Shown: piece after piece, positions 1 to 13,786 of the stretch
How positions within the stretch are numbered: the first letter of the stretch is position 1
How the letters are laid out: each line of letters starts with the position of its first letter
Source: a virus
DNA: 25,402 bases
UHGV virus genome: UHGV-1747320
Strand: one strand, 5' to 3'
Program-made: the position numbers and the translations under genes
Notes under the pieces: model-generated
What the model was told of the DNA's origin: nothing
Database searches by the model: none
The model's input: only the letters and a program-made list of their open reading frames with translations

Positions 1-487
1 ATCCGAAAACATTCATACGCGCGATACCCACGACACGCCATTCCCCAAACAGCGAAGAAACACAGAATCACTGAACCCCCCCAACGAAGCCTGTAACCGC
101 AAGGCTTCTCTCAATCCCAAAAGACACGAAACATAACAATCACGGGAAACGCCATTACCCAATACACGAATAACTACAAAAGCCTTTCACGCACTCCAGA
201 CAAACACAATAACGAAAGGAATCGCCCACCTGCCATTACTCCATACACGGAGAAGAACAATCACCAAAACGACGAGAACACCCCATAGAAGAACCACCGC
301 AAAACGAACGAAACCACATACACCGACAGAGAGAACAACACACCCAATTCACCAACAGAAATAGTCGCCGTATAGAACGTTCTGGAAGGAGTGAGTATTA
401 ACGTCCATAGAGAGGTTGAGACAGATAAAACACGAAGAAAACACAGCATGTATAGCGAAGAAGCCAGGTATGTATAAGTGGGGAGGG
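1..487. other. Non-coding stretch with strong strand compositional asymmetry (plus strand A+C-rich, T and G depleted)
   Basis: No convincing ORF on either strand; track ORFs 261..524(-) and 416..793(+) have low-complexity, Cys/Arg/Trp-rich translations typical of non-coding DNA. Composition judged by eye. Ends at an intrinsic-terminator-like hairpin. Confidence 0.4.
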
Positions 488-511
488 AAGGAGGGGTGTC
501 GCCTCCTTTTT
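488..511 (+). terminator. Rho-independent terminator-like hairpin (stem AAGGAGG/CCTCCTT, loop GGTGTCG, then TTTT)
   Basis: Seen in sequence: 7-bp GC-containing inverted repeat 488-494/502-508 followed by a T-run 507-511. Confidence 0.5.
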
Positions 512-576
512 CGTATTTATTCAACTCCTGATTTTATCCCCCGTAACACCCCTACGGTCAGCCTTCGGTCCATACA

Positions 577-709
577 GGGAAAAGGTTGCATCCCGCTACA
601 GAAACGGCTGGGTTGCCTTCGGGGAACGGCTGGAGGTTTTCAGGGAAACGGTCGAGTTGCCTGTGTGGATTTCGGGAAAAGGCTCGATGCCGGTTCAGGA
701 ACGGTGGCG
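577..709 (+). repeat. Iteron-like array of six direct repeats, consensus (C)GGGAAACGGCTGG
   Basis: Copies begin at about 577, 599, 620, 641, 673 and 696, so spacing is mostly 21-23 bp (about two helical turns). A related cluster lies at 3532-3611. Confidence 0.6.
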
Positions 710-1021
710 TACCGGTATAGCGTGAGGGATAGTTGCGGCTGCCCACCTGTAATGTGCGGGAAGGAGAGAGACGATCACGTGCAGGCGGACTAACTTACCG
801 CTGGATTCCCTCTGAATGCCCAGCTACAGCGTAATTGTGCCAGACAGCCAGCGGGTCACAATCGATTTCAGTAGGTTTTCGGGGAGAGGATTATTCTGCC
901 CACCAGCCACCTTCGGCCACTAAATCAGAATAATGTAAAAAGTGTACTCGGTACTGAACCTGAAAACTCACTGCCAAAACCACATTCACCGGAATAAAAT
1001 CCTTTTTCGCCTGTGCGTTAT

Positions 1022-1056
1022 TGTGATAATAACACCAACAAGAAAACATGTTGTTT
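1022..1056 (+). promoter_or_regulatory. Early promoter module: extended -10 (TGtGATAAT, 1022-1030), conserved CAACAAGAAAACA leader, palindrome AAACA-tgt-TGTTT (1044-1056)
   Basis: The same module (GATAAT, then about 12 nt, then CAACAAGAAAACA and an AACAA-N-TTGTT palindrome) recurs at 2463-2494 and 2947-2978; related copies at 1509-1540 and 13727-13765. Confidence 0.55.
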
Positions 1057-1068
1057 AAGGATTGCTTT

Positions 1069-2795: not shown

Positions 2796-2946
2796 ATAAT
2801 AAGGTCACCAATGCTGGTGGCCTTAAATGACCATCCTGTTCCCCGCAGGCTAAAAACACCAACCTCTTACCTCCAGGCAACCGACAAACCCACCTGTTCC
2901 CGTCCGGCTACCGCAACTTTCCACTTTGACGCCTTATTCGTACAAC

Positions 2947-3491: not shown

Positions 3492-3512
3492 GGGCCAGAA
3501 ACGGCCCTTTCT
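3492..3512 (+). terminator. Rho-independent terminator (stem GGGCC/GGCCC, loop AGAAAC, then TTT)
   Basis: Inverted repeat 3492-3496/3503-3507 plus T-run; the loop carries the AGAAACGG iteron-like motif. Confidence 0.6.
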
Positions 3513-3531
3513 CTATAGCCACCAGCTGCCG

Positions 3532-3611
3532 CAGGGAAATTTTCAGAAACGGCGAGGAACGTATTCATGAGCCGACGGGAAACGGCCAGGATTTTTTCGG
3601 GAAACGGCTGC
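3532..3611 (+). repeat. Second cluster of GGGAAACGG-type direct repeats (copies near 3532, 3544, 3576, 3598)
   Basis: Sequences CAGGGAAA, CAGAAACGGCGAGG, CGGGAAACGGCCAGG, CGGGAAACGGCTGC; same consensus as the 577-709 array. Confidence 0.55.
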
Positions 3612-3850: not shown

Positions 3851-4019
3851 ACATAGCAAGACTAAAAGCCAATGATTAACCATACGCTATAGCGCAATAT
3901 AACGCGTTTTAAGCGCGTTAATGTGTTAAGTAATGGGTATGTACTGGTAAGGATATAAAAGCGCGTCTATGGCGTTATTTTGGCGCTTATTTTTATGTTG
4001 TTGGAGTGAGTTAAAGACA

Positions 4020-4047
4020 ATAAAAAACGCGCCATCATTGGCGCGTT
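4020..4047 (-). terminator. Rho-independent terminator for the leftward operon (stem AACGCGCC/GGCGCGTT)
   Basis: 8-bp inverted repeat 4026-4033/4040-4047; the minus strand reads hairpin then TTTTTT. Confidence 0.6.
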
Positions 4048-4065
4048 ATGGTGGGAGTATTGGAA

Positions 4066-4103
4066 ACGAAAAAAGCGCCCATAGTGGGCGCTCGATTTTA
4101 TTT
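4066..4103. terminator. Bidirectional terminator (stem AGCGCCC/GGGCGCT, loop ATAGT) flanked by A-run and T-run
   Basis: Stem 4074-4080/4086-4092; minus strand gives hairpin plus TTTTTT, plus strand gives hairpin plus T-rich tail. The 20-nt core is repeated in inverted orientation at 4571-4590. Confidence 0.65.
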
Positions 4104-5540: not shown

Positions 5541-5840
5541 TTACATCTTTTTTGCATAGTTCCTGATTTCTTTTATTATATATTCCTGAAAACGCTCCGA
5601 GTTTTCGCATTTGTCTTTTGAAGACTCATCAAGTCCCAACTTGCATCCCGCAACGATCAGTCCATCTTGATATGCAGCGCCTAAAGCCATGCTTAGGTCT
5701 AACATGCACAAATCGTAGTCTTCCGCCTTTGAACACAACTCTGTAGAGACACGTTGCACTCGTTCAATGCTATTTTCTTGAGAAAATGCGGAAGAGCTAA
5801 AAATGAAAGTTAAGAATGTGAATGCTGCTACAGTTTTCAT
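5541..5840 (-). CDS. Small secreted protein with N-terminal signal peptide and four conserved Cys (99 aa); paralog of 5916..6212
   Basis: N-terminus MKTVAAFTFLTFIFSSSAFSQ is signal-peptide-like; AGGAT RBS; shares the pattern C-x8-C-M-x2-L-S-x-A ... C ... C-E with the neighbouring gene. Confidence 0.65.
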   Translation of the reverse strand: MKTVAAFTFLTFIFSSSAFSQENSIERVQRVSTELCSKAEDYDLCMLDLSMALGAAYQDGLIVAGCKLGLDESSKDKCENSERFQEYIIKEIRNYAKKM

Positions 5841-5849
5841 ATCAATATC

Positions 5850-5908
5850 CTAAAACGGTAAAATTCGGTCAACCAAATCGAAGAAAACAAGAATTTTTCT
5901 GCCGTCTT
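5850..5908. repeat. Copy B of an about 58-bp direct repeat; the second copy at 6215-6274 encodes the C-terminus of the 187-aa protein
   Basis: Sequence GGTAAAATTCGGTCAACCAAATCGAAGAAAACAAGAATTTTTCTGCCGTCTT differs by about 2 mismatches from 6223-6274. In copy B the reading frame still spells ...DGRKILVFFDLVDRILPF-stop, a gene 3-prime remnant. Confidence 0.7.
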
Positions 5909-5915
5909 CATACAT

Positions 5916-6212
5916 TTATCGGACTGACTCTACAGCCTTACGATTGGTGTCAAAAAGCGTATCAACGAACAGCAATGAAGAGTTGTTCAATTCACATGGT
6001 TCATAATTTTCCACCTGTTCACATAGTTGAGCGGTCTTACCTATGTTTATCCCTAGTTTTACTGCTGCTGAAAGTTGAAACATGCAAACTGGAATATTCT
6101 GAGACGTTGAGCATACGTCATGCATCAGCGACTTAATAATTGCAATATCATCCTTTGCATTGGCTGAAATTGAGTAAACTAAAAATAATGATGTCAATAG
6201 TATCGATTTCAT
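5916..6212 (-). CDS. Small secreted protein with signal peptide and four conserved Cys (98 aa); paralog of 5541..5840
   Basis: N-terminus MKSILLTSLFLVYSISANA; weak RBS; conserved Cys spacing shared with the paralog. Confidence 0.6.
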   Translation of the reverse strand: MKSILLTSLFLVYSISANAKDDIAIIKSLMHDVCSTSQNIPVCMFQLSAAVKLGINIGKTAQLCEQVENYEPCELNNSSLLFVDTLFDTNRKAVESVR

Positions 6213-6214
6213 AA

Positions 6215-6274
6215 CTCAAAAAGGTAAAATTCGTTCAACCCAATCGAAGAAAACAAGAATTTTTCTGCCGTCTT
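6215..6274. repeat. Copy A of the about 58-bp direct repeat (overlaps the stop and last about 19 codons of 6216..6779)
   Basis: See 5850-5908. Confidence 0.7.
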
Positions 6275-6779
6275 TCAACTTAAGTGTGACTAGGCAGGCA
6301 TCAACGCCATCTGACGTTCCCTCAATTTCGCGGCCGTCTGCCATGTAGACCCTTATAGATTGGCCGTTTTGATAAGCCTTGCGACATATCTTAAAAAAAT
6401 CACGACGTGATGGCTGGTTGTCTACATAGTCAGGGTGTATTGTTAGTCTCCCTTTGAAATCGTAATCAATGCCATCAATTACGCCTGATTCAATTGTGCT
6501 AATGCGCTCAAGTGGGAGCCTTATACGATTTTCTTTGTCAAATGGAGTTGGACAAAGGTCAACTTTGTTACGAGATGACATGAGACCATAAACGTACATG
6601 CAAAACACTTGGCCGTCTTCGAGAGTGACTCTTACAGGAAATTTAGCCCTCCGCCAGAAGAGCAAGGTGCGTTCAGCATGTTCGTAGTCTCGCGGCCATA
6701 CTTCAGCCGGTATGCCGTAGGTGATATCTTTCGTCGTCATATCATTATAAAGTGGTTGGCAATATGTCCATTGTACCAT
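6216..6779 (-). CDS. Hypothetical protein (187 aa; possible alternative start at 6740)
   Basis: Long ORF without recognisable catalytic motifs; the C-terminal stretch SIRVYMADGREIEG...LVTLKLKDGRKILVFFDWVERI looks beta-rich; no clear SD for either start. Confidence 0.55.
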   Translation of the reverse strand: MVQWTYCQPLYNDMTTKDITYGIPAEVWPRDYEHAERTLLFWRRAKFPVRVTLEDGQVFCMYVYGLMSSRNKVDLCPTPFDKENRIRLPLERISTIESGVIDGIDYDFKGRLTIHPDYVDNQPSRRDFFKICRKAYQNGQSIRVYMADGREIEGTSDGVDACLVTLKLKDGRKILVFFDWVERILPF

Positions 6780-8793: not shown

Positions 8794-10353
8794 CTAATCT
8801 CGTTTCAGAACTCCAAAATCGAATGCGCCATCAACAGGCAATACACCTTCTGCAAAGCCAGGTGTGGTGTCGATGATGTGTTTTCGCTCATAAGAGTGAG
8901 ACAACAGGTATTTGTTGCTAATGTCAATGAAATCAGTGATAAAACACACGTTTGCCTGATTCTTCTTGGCTCGTAAGCCACGACCGACACGTTGTCTCAT
9001 TTCAACTTCTGCTTTCCCACCACCAGCAAGAATGACCGCACCAACGCTTGGCACATCAACACCGACATCCAGAATAGTCGAGCCTATTAAAACATCTATT
9101 TCTCCAGACGCTAAACTGTTCAGCTTTGCTTGCCTTGTCGCTTGGTTCGATTCCCCATAGATGAAGTCAACTCTAAGGCCGGACTCCTTCATCATCTCCA
9201 TCAGGATTTGCCCGTGGCGTTTAAGACGAACCAGAGTCATGCAATTGAGAGAATGTTGCTTATAGAGCAATGCTTCGCGCACAATGGCCTCGTTACGTCC
9301 CAAATTATACACGATCCCCAACTGATAAGCCTTTTGGTAGGCAGTGCTCATACCTACTCTAAAATTAAGGTGTTTGTTGGCAAGTTCCGCCTTGATTCTG
9401 ACCTCGTCTGGCTTGTAGGCAACTTTATGATAAAGGAAGTACGGTTTTGCCAGAATGCCTCGATCAATCAGGTACTTTTCCGTGACTTTTATTTCAATTC
9501 GCCCAGCCACTGCCATCAGACGCATGTTGGCTTCCGTAGAATCCTTCATGAACGGCGTTGCCGTAAGCGCCAGACGATAGTCTGCGTTCACACATAATCT
9601 GGCAATGTCATAGAAATTAGAACCTGAAGACTCATGCGCCTCTTCCAGAATAAGCAGAGACACACTTGAAAGGAAGCGTTTCACCAAGTCCCGACGTTTG
9701 AGGTGGTAGCTCTTCTTATCTGGAGTTGCATCGCGTGGTGGTTCTTCAAGGAAACTTGCCAGAGTTTGAACTGTTGCGACGTTGATATGTCGTGATACCT
9801 GGAACTCACCCGAGCCAATGACTCCAACCTTTTGGTCCTTTAACCACGGTTCGCCATTTTCGGCGCGGTAGTCGATGGATCTCTGGAAGTTTTCGGCCAT
9901 TTGAAACATCAGAACAGAGCGGGTTGTTAAAAATAATGTCATTCGACCGATACGTGCAGCTGCTTTGCAGGCAACGTTAGATTTCCCACCACCAGTAGCG
10001 ATCTGGGCAATCATCATTCCCTCGCGAACTAGTGTTTCCACAGCCTGATCCTGATATGCATAATCAGGATTGTATGGGAATGGGTTAACCGCCGGATTTG
10101 GCTTTCCAAGCGCCGGGGCTTTGTCTTTGCGGATATGAACACATTTGATGCCCGCCTTGTTCAAGTTCGCCGCTACAGGCTTGGCAAAGCCAGCAGGGAA
10201 CGAGTTTTTACTCCAGTTGAACATCGTGCTTGTGCCCTTCCAGTCGCCAGTCTCGACTTCGTAGCTCAACATCTGTTGCACCAGTTGCTTTACCTTGTCA
10301 TCTGCGCCAGAAATAAGCGCATTAACTGCGTTAGATACAATCCGAACAGTCAT
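8794..10353 (-). CDS. Superfamily 2 (DEAD/DEAH-type) DNA helicase (519 aa)
   Basis: Motif I ATGGGKS, motif II LILEEAHE, motif III TATP, motif VI QRVGRGLR are present in the canonical order. Confidence 0.85.
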   Translation of the reverse strand: MTVRIVSNAVNALISGADDKVKQLVQQMLSYEVETGDWKGTSTMFNWSKNSFPAGFAKPVAANLNKAGIKCVHIRKDKAPALGKPNPAVNPFPYNPDYAYQDQAVETLVREGMMIAQIATGGGKSNVACKAAARIGRMTLFLTTRSVLMFQMAENFQRSIDYRAENGEPWLKDQKVGVIGSGEFQVSRHINVATVQTLASFLEEPPRDATPDKKSYHLKRRDLVKRFLSSVSLLILEEAHESSGSNFYDIARLCVNADYRLALTATPFMKDSTEANMRLMAVAGRIEIKVTEKYLIDRGILAKPYFLYHKVAYKPDEVRIKAELANKHLNFRVGMSTAYQKAYQLGIVYNLGRNEAIVREALLYKQHSLNCMTLVRLKRHGQILMEMMKESGLRVDFIYGESNQATRQAKLNSLASGEIDVLIGSTILDVGVDVPSVGAVILAGGGKAEVEMRQRVGRGLRAKKNQANVCFITDFIDISNKYLLSHSYERKHIIDTTPGFAEGVLPVDGAFDFGVLKRD

Positions 10354-10400
10354 AAACCTCTTTCCTTAGTGCCTTTTGTATGTTATTTGGCTATTATAAT

Positions 10401-10419
10401 AAGTAAGTGATTACTTAGT
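10401..10419. promoter_or_regulatory. AT-rich imperfect palindrome (TAAGTAAGTGATTACTTAG) in the divergent promoter region between the helicase and ParB-like operons
   Basis: Follows a TATAAT hexamer at 10395-10400; member of the GTAAGTA palindrome family. Confidence 0.4.
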
Positions 10420-10435
10420 GGATTGTAGCAATAAA

Positions 10436-11116
10436 ATGGATGTAAAAATCACGATTTTGCAGGTTGATGTTGCCAACCTTCGCCCGAATACCTGGAACAC
10501 CAATTCGGTTGGTGCGCAGAATTTTGAAAAACTGAAAGGTTCTATCGAAAAATTGGGCTTTTTTAAGCCAATTTTGGCTCGTGAACTTGAAGATGGATTT
10601 TTTGAAATCCTCGGCGGCGAACATCGCTGGCGTGCTGCTATTGAGCAAGGAATTTCAACGGTTCCGGTGCTTTCTGTGGGCAAAATTAGCGATGTCGTAG
10701 CTAAACAGATGTCACTGGTGGACAACGAGCGATACGGTGAAGACGACCAAATCGCATTGCAACGCTTCATTGAAGAAATTCAGTCAGAACTTGACTATCA
10801 ACTGTCTGAAATTGCCCCGTATGACGACGAAATCTCGATGGTTTTAGCAAAAGAGGCGGCAATCGACCTTGAAGCACTGGAGGCGTTGTCTCGTGGTAGT
10901 GATGAGCCTGTCGATACCGACAAACGAGAGAAAACCGAACGTGTGGGTGCGGAACATCAGACCATGCGCTTCAAAGTAACTTTCGATGCGTCAGATCGTG
11001 TTGCAGAAACCATAAAAAACATCATCAAAGAGCAGGCTATTAACACCGGTAATGAAATGGAGAACGCTGGTGAGGCTCTGGTGTGGCTGGTCGACTACTA
11101 CAAGGAGCGTATGTAA
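10436..11116 (+). CDS. ParB/Srx-like N-terminal domain protein (about 226 aa)
   Basis: Signature FEILGGEHRWRAA (ParB GxxRxxA box); acidic C-terminal half. Track ORF begins at a GTG at 10418; ATG at 10436 used here. Confidence 0.75.
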   Translation: MDVKITILQVDVANLRPNTWNTNSVGAQNFEKLKGSIEKLGFFKPILARELEDGFFEILGGEHRWRAAIEQGISTVPVLSVGKISDVVAKQMSLVDNERYGEDDQIALQRFIEEIQSELDYQLSEIAPYDDEISMVLAKEAAIDLEALEALSRGSDEPVDTDKREKTERVGAEHQTMRFKVTFDASDRVAETIKNIIKEQAINTGNEMENAGEALVWLVDYYKERM

Positions 11117-11784
11117 TGACCAAAAAGTTTGAAATCGTATATCGCGACCCGGCAGATCTTATTCCCTATGAGATGAATGCCAAAAAGCATGATGAACAGC
11201 AGATCCGAGATCTGGCCGCAGCCATTAAAAAGCGCGGATTTGACCAGCCAATTACGGTCGATAAGAACGACGTAATTATTACTGGCCACGGCCGCCGTGA
11301 GGCTGCAATTTTTGCTGGACTTGAGCGCGTACCGGTTATTGTTCGCGATGATCTCAGTGATGACGAGGTTCGTGCGAAGCGCCTTGAAGATAACCGACTT
11401 GCCAGCATTGATTACGATGCAATTAAGCTACAGAAAGAACTTGAGTCGCTTGTTCTGGACGATATCGAGGTTTTCGGCTTTGAAGAGCGTGAGTTGAATG
11501 TTCTCGTTGGCAGTATGACAGAAGAAATGGACACCGATTCGCTAGTTATCGATCTTGGCGAAGAAACTAAACGACAGAAGGATGAACACACCGAGATCAG
11601 TCGTGAAGTTGCAGCGGAAGAAGTACGTGTTGTCGACGTATTGGGCTTTAAAACGCTCCCTGCTGGCTCTGCCATTGTTGTTGGTGATTTGCTTGCCCAC
11701 ATGGAAGAAATGACGGGAGAAAGCGGGGTAGACGCATTTGTGGCATATGCGGAGAAGATCTCTTCCGGGGAGATGGCTGCATGA
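11116..11784 (+). CDS. Second ParB/Srx-like domain protein (about 222 aa)
   Basis: Signature ITGHGRREAA; AAGGAG 8 nt upstream of ATG 11116; start overlaps the upstream stop (TAATG). Confidence 0.75.
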   Translation: MTKKFEIVYRDPADLIPYEMNAKKHDEQQIRDLAAAIKKRGFDQPITVDKNDVIITGHGRREAAIFAGLERVPVIVRDDLSDDEVRAKRLEDNRLASIDYDAIKLQKELESLVLDDIEVFGFEERELNVLVGSMTEEMDTDSLVIDLGEETKRQKDEHTEISREVAAEEVRVVDVLGFKTLPAGSAIVVGDLLAHMEEMTGESGVDAFVAYAEKISSGEMAA

Positions 11785-12446
11785 GCAAATACATCATCAA
11801 CGTATCGTTTCAGACACGCGTAAATAAAACCACGCGCACGTTGGAAATCGCTGAGTCGTTCGGGCTTGGTCTGGACGAAAAAGAGTGGACGCTTTACGAC
11901 AATCTGGAGCTGGAAGTGAAGCAGGGCGATGTGGTGTACATCACCGGCCAATCCGGTTCCGGCAAATCCGTTGTGCTGCGCGAGTTGCAACGACAGATGA
12001 AGGATGAAGGGCTGTCTGTAGCCTCCATCGATGATTTTACCTTCGATAATGAGGTTAACGTCATCGATCAGTTGGGCAAAACGACCAGTGATGCGCTTGG
12101 GTTGTTATCTATGGCTGGTCTGAACGATGCATATCTGTTTGTTCGCAAGCCTTCTGAAATGTCAGACGGCCAGAAATATCGTCTCAAGATTGCCAAACTG
12201 ATTGAGTCAGGCGCTAAAGTATGGGCTGCTGACGAGTTCGGCGCTGTTCTCGACCGTGTAACCGCTCAGGTTGTGGCGTCTAACCTCCAGCGTGCCGCTC
12301 GAAAGGTTGGTGCGACGGTAATGGTGGCGACGACTCACGAAGACCTGAAGAACGCGCTGCGCCCGGATATGCAGATCACCAAGCACTACAAAGAACGCGT
12401 GAAGGTGGAATATCACAATGGTAGTCATGATGAGGTCCATTCATGA
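11781..12446 (+). CDS. ABC-type (P-loop) ATPase domain protein (221 aa)
   Basis: Walker A GQSGSGKS, signature-like SDGQKYRL, Walker B VWAADEF, H-loop-like ATTHED; ATGA overlap with the upstream gene. Confidence 0.75.
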   Translation: MSKYIINVSFQTRVNKTTRTLEIAESFGLGLDEKEWTLYDNLELEVKQGDVVYITGQSGSGKSVVLRELQRQMKDEGLSVASIDDFTFDNEVNVIDQLGKTTSDALGLLSMAGLNDAYLFVRKPSEMSDGQKYRLKIAKLIESGAKVWAADEFGAVLDRVTAQVVASNLQRAARKVGATVMVATTHEDLKNALRPDMQITKHYKERVKVEYHNGSHDEVHS

Positions 12447-13333
12447 CGGACATCATCATTAAACGCTACCGCCCTGAAGAGTTTCCGCGTCATCTGGACT
12501 TTCTGGAGCGAATGACTGTTACAAAGGGAACTGTAGAGGACTGGCACGCTCTTAAGTCGCTTCACTACAAAACAGACGGCAAACCTTTCGCGCCAACTTA
12601 CTATCGCTGCGAACTTGATGACCGTCTGGTGGGCGTCGTGGTTATGGCTTACCCGAAACTACTGTTGGCACCTCGCCACCGCATGTTTCCTAAGTTGAAA
12701 CCAACCACTAATACCACCGTGGCTAACCAGTACTGGGGTCGGTACGTGAATAACAACTTTGCGGTGATCAGTCGCTCAGTTGTGGATACTCAGTATCGTG
12801 GCGTAGGCGTCTCTTATCGAATGATTAACCTGGTTAGCAGGATGCATGACCGGCCAATCATTGAGATCCAGTCCTCGATGAGCAAATACAATCCCTTCGC
12901 CATGAAAGCAGGGTTTAAGTTCATCCGCCCTGAGCGACCGAAGAGCTATGAAAGTGCACTGCGTGTATTCCAGCGCCATTTCCGTTCCGACCCGGGTGAT
13001 AACGAGGCGATCGTCAAAGAGTTGTTCGCAATGAGCGAGTCTCGTCGTCGCCGTGCACTGCGTGATCTGGTGGCGGACTACCACAAGAACAGTTCTCTGG
13101 CAAAAGCTGGGCGGAATCGTGGCACGACGATTCAGGACATTGCCGACAGTCTGGTGGACGAGGCCAGCATTGTGAAGCTGCTCAAGGACATTCACAACCT
13201 GAGCTTTACGTCTCCGTTGTATGGTGTGTACCGAAACCCTGACTTTGGCCGTCGACTGCCTGACACGCTGCCACTGCTGGCATTCGACAAACAACCTTTG
13301 GATAAACCGTTAGAAATTGCTTTACCGGCATAA
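12443..13333 (+). CDS. GNAT-like (acyl-CoA N-acyltransferase fold) protein (296 aa), assignment tentative
   Basis: Core resembling the GNAT motif A region (VVMAYP ... QYRGVGVSYRMI ... NPFAMKAGFKF); ATGA overlap with the ATPase gene. Confidence 0.6.
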   Translation: MTDIIIKRYRPEEFPRHLDFLERMTVTKGTVEDWHALKSLHYKTDGKPFAPTYYRCELDDRLVGVVVMAYPKLLLAPRHRMFPKLKPTTNTTVANQYWGRYVNNNFAVISRSVVDTQYRGVGVSYRMINLVSRMHDRPIIEIQSSMSKYNPFAMKAGFKFIRPERPKSYESALRVFQRHFRSDPGDNEAIVKELFAMSESRRRRALRDLVADYHKNSSLAKAGRNRGTTIQDIADSLVDEASIVKLLKDIHNLSFTSPLYGVYRNPDFGRRLPDTLPLLAFDKQPLDKPLEIALPA

Positions 13334-13726: not shown

Positions 13727-13786
13727 AAAACAAGTTGGTTAGAAAATGCAGTAAACAAGTTGTTTTAGAGCGCATGGACGCGCTCT
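13727..13786 (+). promoter_or_regulatory. Regulatory region upstream of terS: two AAACAAG-TTG(G/T)TT palindromes (13727-13740, 13753-13765) and hairpin AGAGCGC/GCGCTCT (13767-13786)
   Basis: The same palindrome as in the early promoter modules; the hairpin is flanked by a direct repeat GTTTTAGAG. Confidence 0.5.

Follow-up and report, generated by a model that had tools for sequence, protein, structure and literature searches.

A conserved A+C-rich, non-coding block of SSU5/pHCM2-type phage-plasmids and its possible role as a Rho-loading regulatory spacer

Unstructured RNA that is rich in C and poor in G is known to load the termination factor Rho at rut sites, as in rutA/rutB of lambda tR1 or the corA and mgtA leaders of Salmonella, and Rho needs only around 80 nt of such RNA. 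Repeated sequences with a role in double-stranded DNA are also well described, among them R1 parC, the omega heptad arrays of pSM19035 and the dispersed C1 operators of P1, while RNA decoys include the phage-encoded anti-sRNA AgvB and the protein-sponge RNAs CrcZ and CsrB. SSU5/pHCM2-type phage-plasmids are common in clinical Enterobacteriaceae. To our knowledge, little is known of how they change from plasmid life to lytic growth and back, and no description of this was found in the papers searched.

Here we analyze a non-coding block that is the compositionally most extreme sequence of these elements, is found across genera and is unannotated in most of the records inspected; no description of it was found in the literature. 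Together with the operator-like palindrome and the repeat arrays presented below, it offers concrete cis elements for dissecting the switch. If the block were a Rho-loading insulator, as we tentatively propose, it would illustrate how a lysogen can express its cargo genes while keeping that transcription out of the lytic genes.

The block, its host element and its surroundings

The stretch of DNA analyzed (the window) has 25,402 nucleotides. Its first 1000 positions are 96% identical over their full length to Escherichia phage Cyrano (plasmid pLF82 of E. coli LF82) and also match other SSU5/pHCM2-type phage-plasmids; on this sequence identity, the window is an element of that type. The counterpart of positions 1-1000 lies at 94.75-95.76 kb in the 108-kb Cyrano replicon, whose record begins at the small terminase gene. 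The match is therefore internal, and the start of the window is an arbitrary cut in a circular element, with the block around 13 kb away from the terminase genes.

The earlier note on this DNA had described an A+C-rich stretch of about 490 bp at the start of the window. The bias is real: positions 1-360 have an A+C fraction of 0.756 (75.6%; A 0.419, C 0.336, G 0.136, T 0.108), 7.4 SD over the window mean and the maximum among all 360-nt windows of the 25.4 kb (mean 0.495, sd 0.035), the next most extreme value being 0.589. The length had to be corrected, since the bias fades near 370-400 (47.7% A+C in 361-511) and the extent within the window is thus only some 370-400 bp. Strand skew, previously judged by eye, was computed, and no stretch within 101.7 kb of Cyrano has a C-G skew as extreme as that of the block (+0.215 over 600 nt, against a mean of -0.025 and sd of 0.037), which ranks first at both the 300-nt and the 600-nt scale. 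The block holds a run of 697 consecutive 78-nt windows in which C/G exceeds 1.5, the next longest run in Cyrano having 179, and C/G is 1.8-2.7 across 636-676 nt in all five lineages.

The feature is clipped by the edge of the window. In Cyrano the block covers about 850 bp (5572-6422 of locus L001, where window position 1 is 6001), and in relatives around 450 bp of it lie to the left of position 1. The parts recognized within the window are the following:

1..370, plus strand: right-hand ~45% of the ~850-bp A+C-rich, C>G, non-coding block (remainder, Cyrano L001 5572-6000)
1..10, plus strand: third 31-nt tandem unit, tail only (box1 ACCMACCTSTT and box2 CAGGCWACCG)
35..63, plus strand: 'ACGCCATT...' repeat unit, variant copy (ACGCCATTCCCCAAACAGCGAAGAAACAC), its position conserved in all lineages
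149..174, plus strand: 'ACGCCATTACCCAATACACG...' repeat unit
230..260, plus strand: 'CTGCCATTACTCCATACACGGAGAAGAACAA' repeat unit, the best-conserved copy, with 17 nt invariant across lineages
364..382, plus strand: right edge of the A+C-rich block, marked by the conserved box GTCGCCGTATAGAACGTT, which hardly varies in alignments A1 and A2
472..496, plus strand: conserved GTATAAGTG followed by a purine tract (GGGGAGGGAAGGAGGGG) that forms the 5' arm of a hairpin; GTATAAG conserved
485..511, plus strand: hairpin and T5 run, intrinsic-terminator-like in the E. coli lineage

The three 31-nt units (Cyrano 94668-94752) are mostly to the left of the window, the third one ending at window position 10. 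The 'ACGCCATTACYC..ACACGGAGAAGAAC' units number four to six per block and occupy conserved positions with an irregular spacing of 41-143 bp, all in one orientation, which is shared by the 31-nt units; the block has four occurrences of GCCATTAC, where 1.2 would be expected in 45 kb. Beyond the window edge, the left-hand portion of the block holds a conserved promoter-like element (TTGACG, 18-nt spacer, TATACC), inverted repeats and one conserved copy of an operator-like palindrome. The candidate promoter lacks the usual final T of the -10 hexamer, and the scan did not call it. No periodicity of 3, 10.5 or 22 nt was found in the block.

The absence of a credible ORF, pointed out before, held: the ORF listing contains no plus-strand ORF of at least 40 aa before 416, and on the minus strand only TTG ORFs of 49 and 87 aa. 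A protein-coding gene was rejected, given that stop-free stretches differ in frame and length among five lineages; alignment gaps in the block are not multiples of three, and 3-nt periodicity is absent. Cyrano has two CDS calls here, CYRAN_103 (94381-94737, left half of the block) and CYRAN_104, neither of which is conserved; in most of the plasmid records inspected, PGAP places no gene at the block. The listed ORF 416-793 (plus strand, CYRAN_104 region) has its frame broken in relatives by a 10-nt insertion and a 22-nt deletion. From these comparisons, the ORFs called over the non-coding region (416-793, CYRAN_103 and CYRAN_104) are probably spurious.

The block marks the border between variable cargo genes on the left and conserved small genes on the right. 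The former encode MetRS, a MinD-like ATPase and a coiled-coil protein in Cyrano, a ppGpp hydrolase and YdfZ in SSU5, a GIY-YIG nuclease in Enterobacter, and DUF262 plus a type I restriction-modification system, on the opposite strand, in Klebsiella. These cargo regions correspond to L001 1-5500, L002 1-5230, L003 1-2950 and L005 1-2550 of the loci compared, and a few junction sequences are recurrent at the left edge of the block. The small genes on the right all belong to PHROG families of unknown function. Several related cis elements were identified on this side:

575..710, plus strand: array of six G-rich units of the GGGAAAMGG type, at spacings of 21-23 and 31 bp, in the same 1.5-kb gene-free region as the block
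1025..1057, plus strand: first downstream promoter/operator module (GATAAT at 1025-1030, palindrome AGAAAACA-TG-TTGTTT at 1041-1057)
2830..2915, plus strand: shorter paralogue of the three 31-nt A+C-rich units, directly upstream of the TTGACG of the promoter of a 160-aa gene
3496..3607, plus strand: second GGGAAACGG/CAGAAACGG repeat array, downstream of the 160-aa gene
1041-1057, 1525-1541, 2479-2495, 2964-2980 and 13750-13766: palindromes AGAAAACAA-N-TTGTTT(A) in the window; in Cyrano at 82, 29259, 32080, 58595, 80549, 81278, 93114, 93165 and others

The copy at 2830-2915 is the sole other site of the 31-nt units and the second most A+C-rich stretch in the window; it precedes a promoter at 2926-2952 (TTGACG 2926-2931, 15-nt spacer, GATAAT 2947-2952) and is conserved in SSU5 and Cyrano. 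The recurrence nearby of both the 31-nt units and the G-rich array indicates that the block is one of a family of repeated cis elements in this control region. Similarity to the 160-aa gene locus, of which the block might have been a decayed paralogue, was not found, and a block made of operator half-sites was likewise rejected, these being not enriched beyond composition. The arrays at 575-710 and 3496-3607, with four to five GGGAAAMGG/CAGAAACGG sites against about 0.2-0.4 expected and a spacing of mostly 21-23 bp, could, from their sequence, represent either DNA sites of the iteron type or the loops of small RNA hairpins; they show no enrichment of GGA, nor was covariation observed. Just to the right of the G-rich array, GC content falls to 0.35-0.39.

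Each of the small genes on the right is preceded by a -10-like hexamer and, around 10 nt further on, by the palindrome of about 17 bp, which is also present upstream of terminase, parA, helicase and other genes, with at least 13 intergenic sites in Cyrano. By analogy, it looks like a dispersed operator of a master regulator, such as those of P1 C1. Allowing at most one mismatch, AAGAAAACAA appears 15 times in the window against 4.4 expected. In the first downstream gene (1048-1398), ATG 1048 sits inside the palindrome, ATG 1069 is preceded by AAGGA and the PHROG match begins at residue 8; a start at 1069 rather than 1048 is more likely from these features.

Other elements were noted in the course of this survey. 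A helicase, a primase, Pol III alpha, RNase H and recombination proteins of the T4-like kind are encoded by the element itself. Its DNA-binding proteins include a FljA-like repressor (window 6216-6779), CYRAN_114, CYRAN_45 and the LexA-like CYRAN_98. The plasmid origin is away from the block in Cyrano: repA, at 60.6-61.7 kb, is flanked by CTCTCTATAGTGGATA iterons with 21-bp spacing, and arrays of these are found on both sides of the gene at 60.1-62.5 kb (10100-12480 of locus L091). This two-sided layout resembles the P1 oriR/incA arrangement. The CTCTCTATAGTGGATA iterons are unrelated to the repeats of the block, which was thus discarded as a RepA origin or incompatibility array. Exact Chi sites (GCTGGTGG) number eight in the 25.4 kb, against 0.56 expected from shuffles (window positions 900, 2813, 3519, 3643, 9020, 13501, 16369 and 25243), and the one at 900-907, on the minus strand, is conserved in several lineages. 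A sub-threshold Rfam match to the Hfq-regulated sRNA Hrs1 (32 bits, gathering score 56.4) at 4019-4093 overlies a pair of back-to-back terminator hairpins in a convergent intergenic region.

A 981-nt query covering the block retrieved 838 PLSDB plasmid records from at least six genera (Klebsiella 430, Escherichia 224, Enterobacter 90, Salmonella 49, Citrobacter 25, Cronobacter 9, and others) and 12 phage records. Among the records listed, each has the match in one place, and most plasmid records have no annotated gene under it. The block was found in 235 of 5,426 complete E. coli genomes (4.3%), always on a plasmid and with a best identity to the window of 96.2%. The circular plasmids that carry it are around 100-120 kb. 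It measures 850-900 bp and has 66-70% A+C in SSU5, pHCM2, an Enterobacter plasmid and a Klebsiella plasmid, in a gene-free gap of 1.4-1.9 kb in relatives. A genome-collection scan for more distant relatives gave only four loci, the three analyzed being all of the SSU5 lineage, and homologues of one downstream gene were not found outside the SSU5/pHCM2-type group.

Four sequence lineages were distinguished, 62-75% identical to each other. Identity of the block between lineages is 65-74%, compared with 45.8 +/- 1.9% for composition-matched shuffles aligned in the same way (around 10 SD), and exceeds that of third codon positions in two neighbouring genes (41-49%), the comparison being approximate because the region recombines as a mosaic. 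Primary sequence is therefore constrained, and from these alignments we take the block to be under purifying selection. Columns that vary among three lineages have 64.5% A+C and invariant ones 74.4%, the commonest mismatch being A<->C; composition is thus maintained beyond the conserved motifs. In one lineage (L078) the A+C-rich block is 84% identical to that of Cyrano (L001) and both flanks around 70%, which indicates recombination inside the non-coding region.

Plus-strand RNA, the hairpin and expression in the lysogen

The plus-strand RNA of positions 1-370 has a minimum free energy of -38.3 kcal/mol, compared with -103.5 +/- 14.8 for 67 other segments of equal length, and is the least foldable of the 68, with 25% of its bases paired against 61%. 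The minus-strand RNA of the block folds normally (-91.5 kcal/mol). An RNA with 11-15% U and 12-18% G is as a consequence very poor in start codons (AUG, GUG or UUG), in Shine-Dalgarno sequences and in hairpins.

A terminator-like hairpin followed by a T-run had been noticed at the end of the stretch, and its elements are in place: GGAGG at 490-494, CCTCC at 502-506 and TTTTT at 507-511, with an energy of -20.1 kcal/mol in a 56-nt context (z = -3.6 with respect to shuffles). The hairpin is kept across eight sequences, largely through G.U pairs, so that it is workable only in plus-strand RNA. The T-run is restricted to the E. coli lineage, being absent in SSU5, pHCM2 and Enterobacter and interrupted in Klebsiella, and outside that lineage the hairpin is no stabler than shuffled sequence (z = +0.3 in SSU5 and +0.4 in pHCM2). 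Judging from the sequence, 485-511 resembles an intrinsic terminator within the E. coli lineage; it is not conserved as such in the SSU5, pHCM2, Enterobacter and Klebsiella lineages.

Searches for known RNA features in the block gave no Rfam 15 covariance-model match at E <= 1 and no tRNA or tmRNA. Fold z-scores were -1.6 and +1.0 in a structured-RNA test that, with only four lineages, has little covariation power; with the same four lineages, the RNAalifold covariation term for the neighbouring G-rich region was unfavourable. Counts of Hfq ARN runs and CsrA GGA motifs in the block equal those of dinucleotide shuffles, and GGA is not preferentially unpaired in the G-rich region. Using a verified GcvB sequence, the best duplex energies with its region R1 were within the shuffle distribution, like those of coding controls, and no significant complementarity to an antisense target elsewhere in the element was detected.

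RNA-seq data are available for LF82, with values given as log2(FPKM+5) (PMC9928086, S1 Table). In that dataset, CYRAN_103, which covers the left half of the block, is at the floor of 2.32, i.e. FPKM 0, in the two replicates grown overnight in LB and close to the floor throughout the ten samples, CYRAN_102, just upstream of the block, is at around 57 FPKM, and CYRAN_104, over the G-rich array, at around 14 FPKM (PMC9928086). These values indicate that the block is silent under those conditions and that upstream transcription stops at its left edge; no intrinsic terminator was found in the scan between CYRAN_102 and the left half of the block. The FPKM of 0, taken here irrespective of strand, may be mere repression. 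No expression data for the induced state were found in the literature.

The suggestion of the earlier note that the stretch might specify an unusually unstructured CA-rich non-coding RNA is thus compatible with the sequence, in view of the low foldability of the plus strand and the G.U-kept hairpin. It is nevertheless conjectural, given the lack of signal over the left half of the block in the LF82 lysogen, a T-run limited to the E. coli lineage, and Hfq, CsrA and GcvB decoy roles that found no support other than from base composition.

Possible functions

Our preferred explanation, which we hold only tentatively, is that the block is a conserved cis-regulatory spacer of about 850 bp in an early control region, whose untranslatable, unstructured and C-rich transcript would load Rho. 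The spacer opens the conserved region of small, presumably early genes and directly adjoins the variable cargo on its left. A rightward transcript, with almost no start codons, Shine-Dalgarno sequences or hairpins and a C/G of around 2-2.7 over more than 600 nt, would be an ideal loading substrate for this host factor, and the block could work as a zone of Rho-dependent termination or attenuation, that is, as an insulator, preventing transcription that arrives from the cargo, or that starts at its own promoter-like element, from entering the genes downstream unless overridden by the phage. A putative phage-plasmid regulator would bind the conserved repeat boxes and, in the E. coli lineage, the intrinsic terminator at 485-511 could act as a backup at the 3' edge.

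Several observations argue for this. C exceeds G over far more than the ~80 nt typical of rut sites, in the most extreme stretch of the genome, and the plus-strand RNA is predicted to be the least stable of the 68 segments and has no conserved ORF. Purifying selection on the block and its position between variable cargo and conserved small genes also agree with this reading. A constraint confined to one strand suggests a single-stranded molecule, the plus-strand transcript being the simplest candidate, and it is the combination of conserved same-orientation boxes with a strand-specific composition in variable positions that leads us to favour a Rho insulator. That expression in the LF82 lysogen falls from 57 to 0 FPKM at the left edge of the block is an indirect hint of Rho-dependent ends, and the single copy of the operator-like palindrome, by its sequence, ties the block to the regulated promoter set. 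On the other hand, given how little RNA Rho requires, loading does not by itself explain the 850 bp and the conserved boxes. In Klebsiella the upstream genes point away from the block, which is nevertheless retained; a transcript through the block was seen in no condition, and the candidate promoter is imperfect and was not called by the scan. In addition, the paralogous 31-nt array that abuts a -35 box, with its 30-31-bp spacing, points to a role in double-stranded DNA.

This last role constitutes the main rival to the Rho-loading spacer and is possible, if rather doubtful: the 31-nt and GCCATTAC units would be an array of binding sites for regulators, acting solely as double-stranded DNA in an enhancer-, operator- or centromere-like platform, and the strand bias would be a by-product of repeats that run the same way. 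The boxes do stand at conserved positions in every lineage, GCCATTAC is over-represented in the block, the 31-nt units lie about three helical turns apart and recur only directly upstream of TTGACG-15-GATAAT, and both the operator-like palindrome within the block and its silence in the LF82 lysogen would fit. However, spacers and variable columns are A+C-rich too (64.5%), which double-stranded sites do not need; GCCATTAC spacing is irregular and not helically phased, 10.5-bp periodicity is absent, operator half-sites are at the level expected from base composition, and no cognate protein was identified.

The same lack of structure, specific to the plus strand, that suits Rho loading would also suit a trans-acting long non-coding RNA of the lytic phase, an unstructured CA-rich decoy for Rho, Hfq, CsrA or GU-rich sRNAs such as GcvB. 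An untranslatable RNA of around 0.85 kb from the block might then titrate Rho hexamers at induction, or some other host factor that binds single-stranded RNA. In favour of this, sequence and composition are both conserved and the 3' hairpin is kept through G.U pairs; if true, phages would have a class of long non-coding RNA that is new and is set apart by composition, not by fold. We regard this as unlikely in view of ARN runs and GGA motifs that are no commoner than in shuffles, GcvB R1 pairing no better than in shuffles or coding controls, the lack of an Rfam match, the FPKM of 0 in the lysogen, and the absence of a clear sigma-70 promoter and of a conserved terminator.

The G-rich array beside the block raises another improbable reading, according to which the region would be part of a lytic replication origin, with the GGGAAAMGG units (575-710) as iterons followed by the A+T-rich dip, and the A+C-rich block providing activating transcription or primer RNA. 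The regular spacing and excess of these units, the fall in GC content just to their right and the replication and recombination proteins encoded by the element would agree with it. Against it, the plasmid origin is elsewhere and its RepA has unrelated CTCTCTATAGTGGATA iterons, the second GGGAAACGG array (3496-3607) follows a gene, no origin-binding protein is encoded nearby, and the RNA is only around 53% purine, which would give it no special R-loop-forming character.

There is similarly little probability that the block is a functionless relic of duplicated promoter-leader modules. The 31-nt units are followed by TTCATACGCGCGATACC, a degenerate counterpart of the TTGACG...GATAAT promoter, and there is a resemblance between the GCCATT units and 'TTACGCCATTGAGAAAACAAG', the leader that goes with the promoter at 1508-1541, but a size of around 850-900 bp has been kept in four lineages and at least six genera, and identity is around 10 SD over the composition-matched baseline and above saturated third-codon positions. 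Finally, the left end or terminal repeat of a linear virion genome, also raised in the earlier note, is in practice out as an explanation and has next to no probability left: the window merely happens to begin inside the block, which runs on for around 450 bp to the left of position 1 into flanking genes, is internal and contiguous on both sides in the circular plasmid and phage records, lies far from the terminase genes and, being in a single place in each of the records listed, gives no sign of a second copy.

Comparison with described systems

With the terminal repeats of linear phage genomes of the T7 or T5 type, the block has in common only that it is non-coding; it is single copy and internal to a circular replicon. 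Position 485-511 shares with intrinsic terminators a G+C-rich stem and five T, whereas its counterparts in SSU5, pHCM2 and Enterobacter have no T-run and that of Klebsiella has an interrupted one. Like CrcZ, CsrB/RsmZ and AgvB, the latter a phage-borne CA-rich mimic, the block is non-coding and has repeated motifs and low structure, yet it is much longer, shows neither ARN/GGA enrichment nor specific GcvB complementarity, has no Rfam match and is not expressed in the LF82 lysogen.

The block resembles operator and centromere arrays in that the repeats share one orientation and the 31-nt units, spaced 30-31 bp apart, have a further copy that immediately precedes a promoter; the operator-like palindrome, dispersed over many promoters of the element, is, in turn, reminiscent of P1 C1. 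It departs from these arrays in the irregular spacing of the GCCATTAC units, the strand bias of the spacers and the unrelated RepA iterons. Rut regions and untranslated leaders are likewise C-rich, G-poor, unstructured, untranslated and located between transcription units, and with respect to them the block is around 10 times longer than needed and carries conserved repeat boxes.
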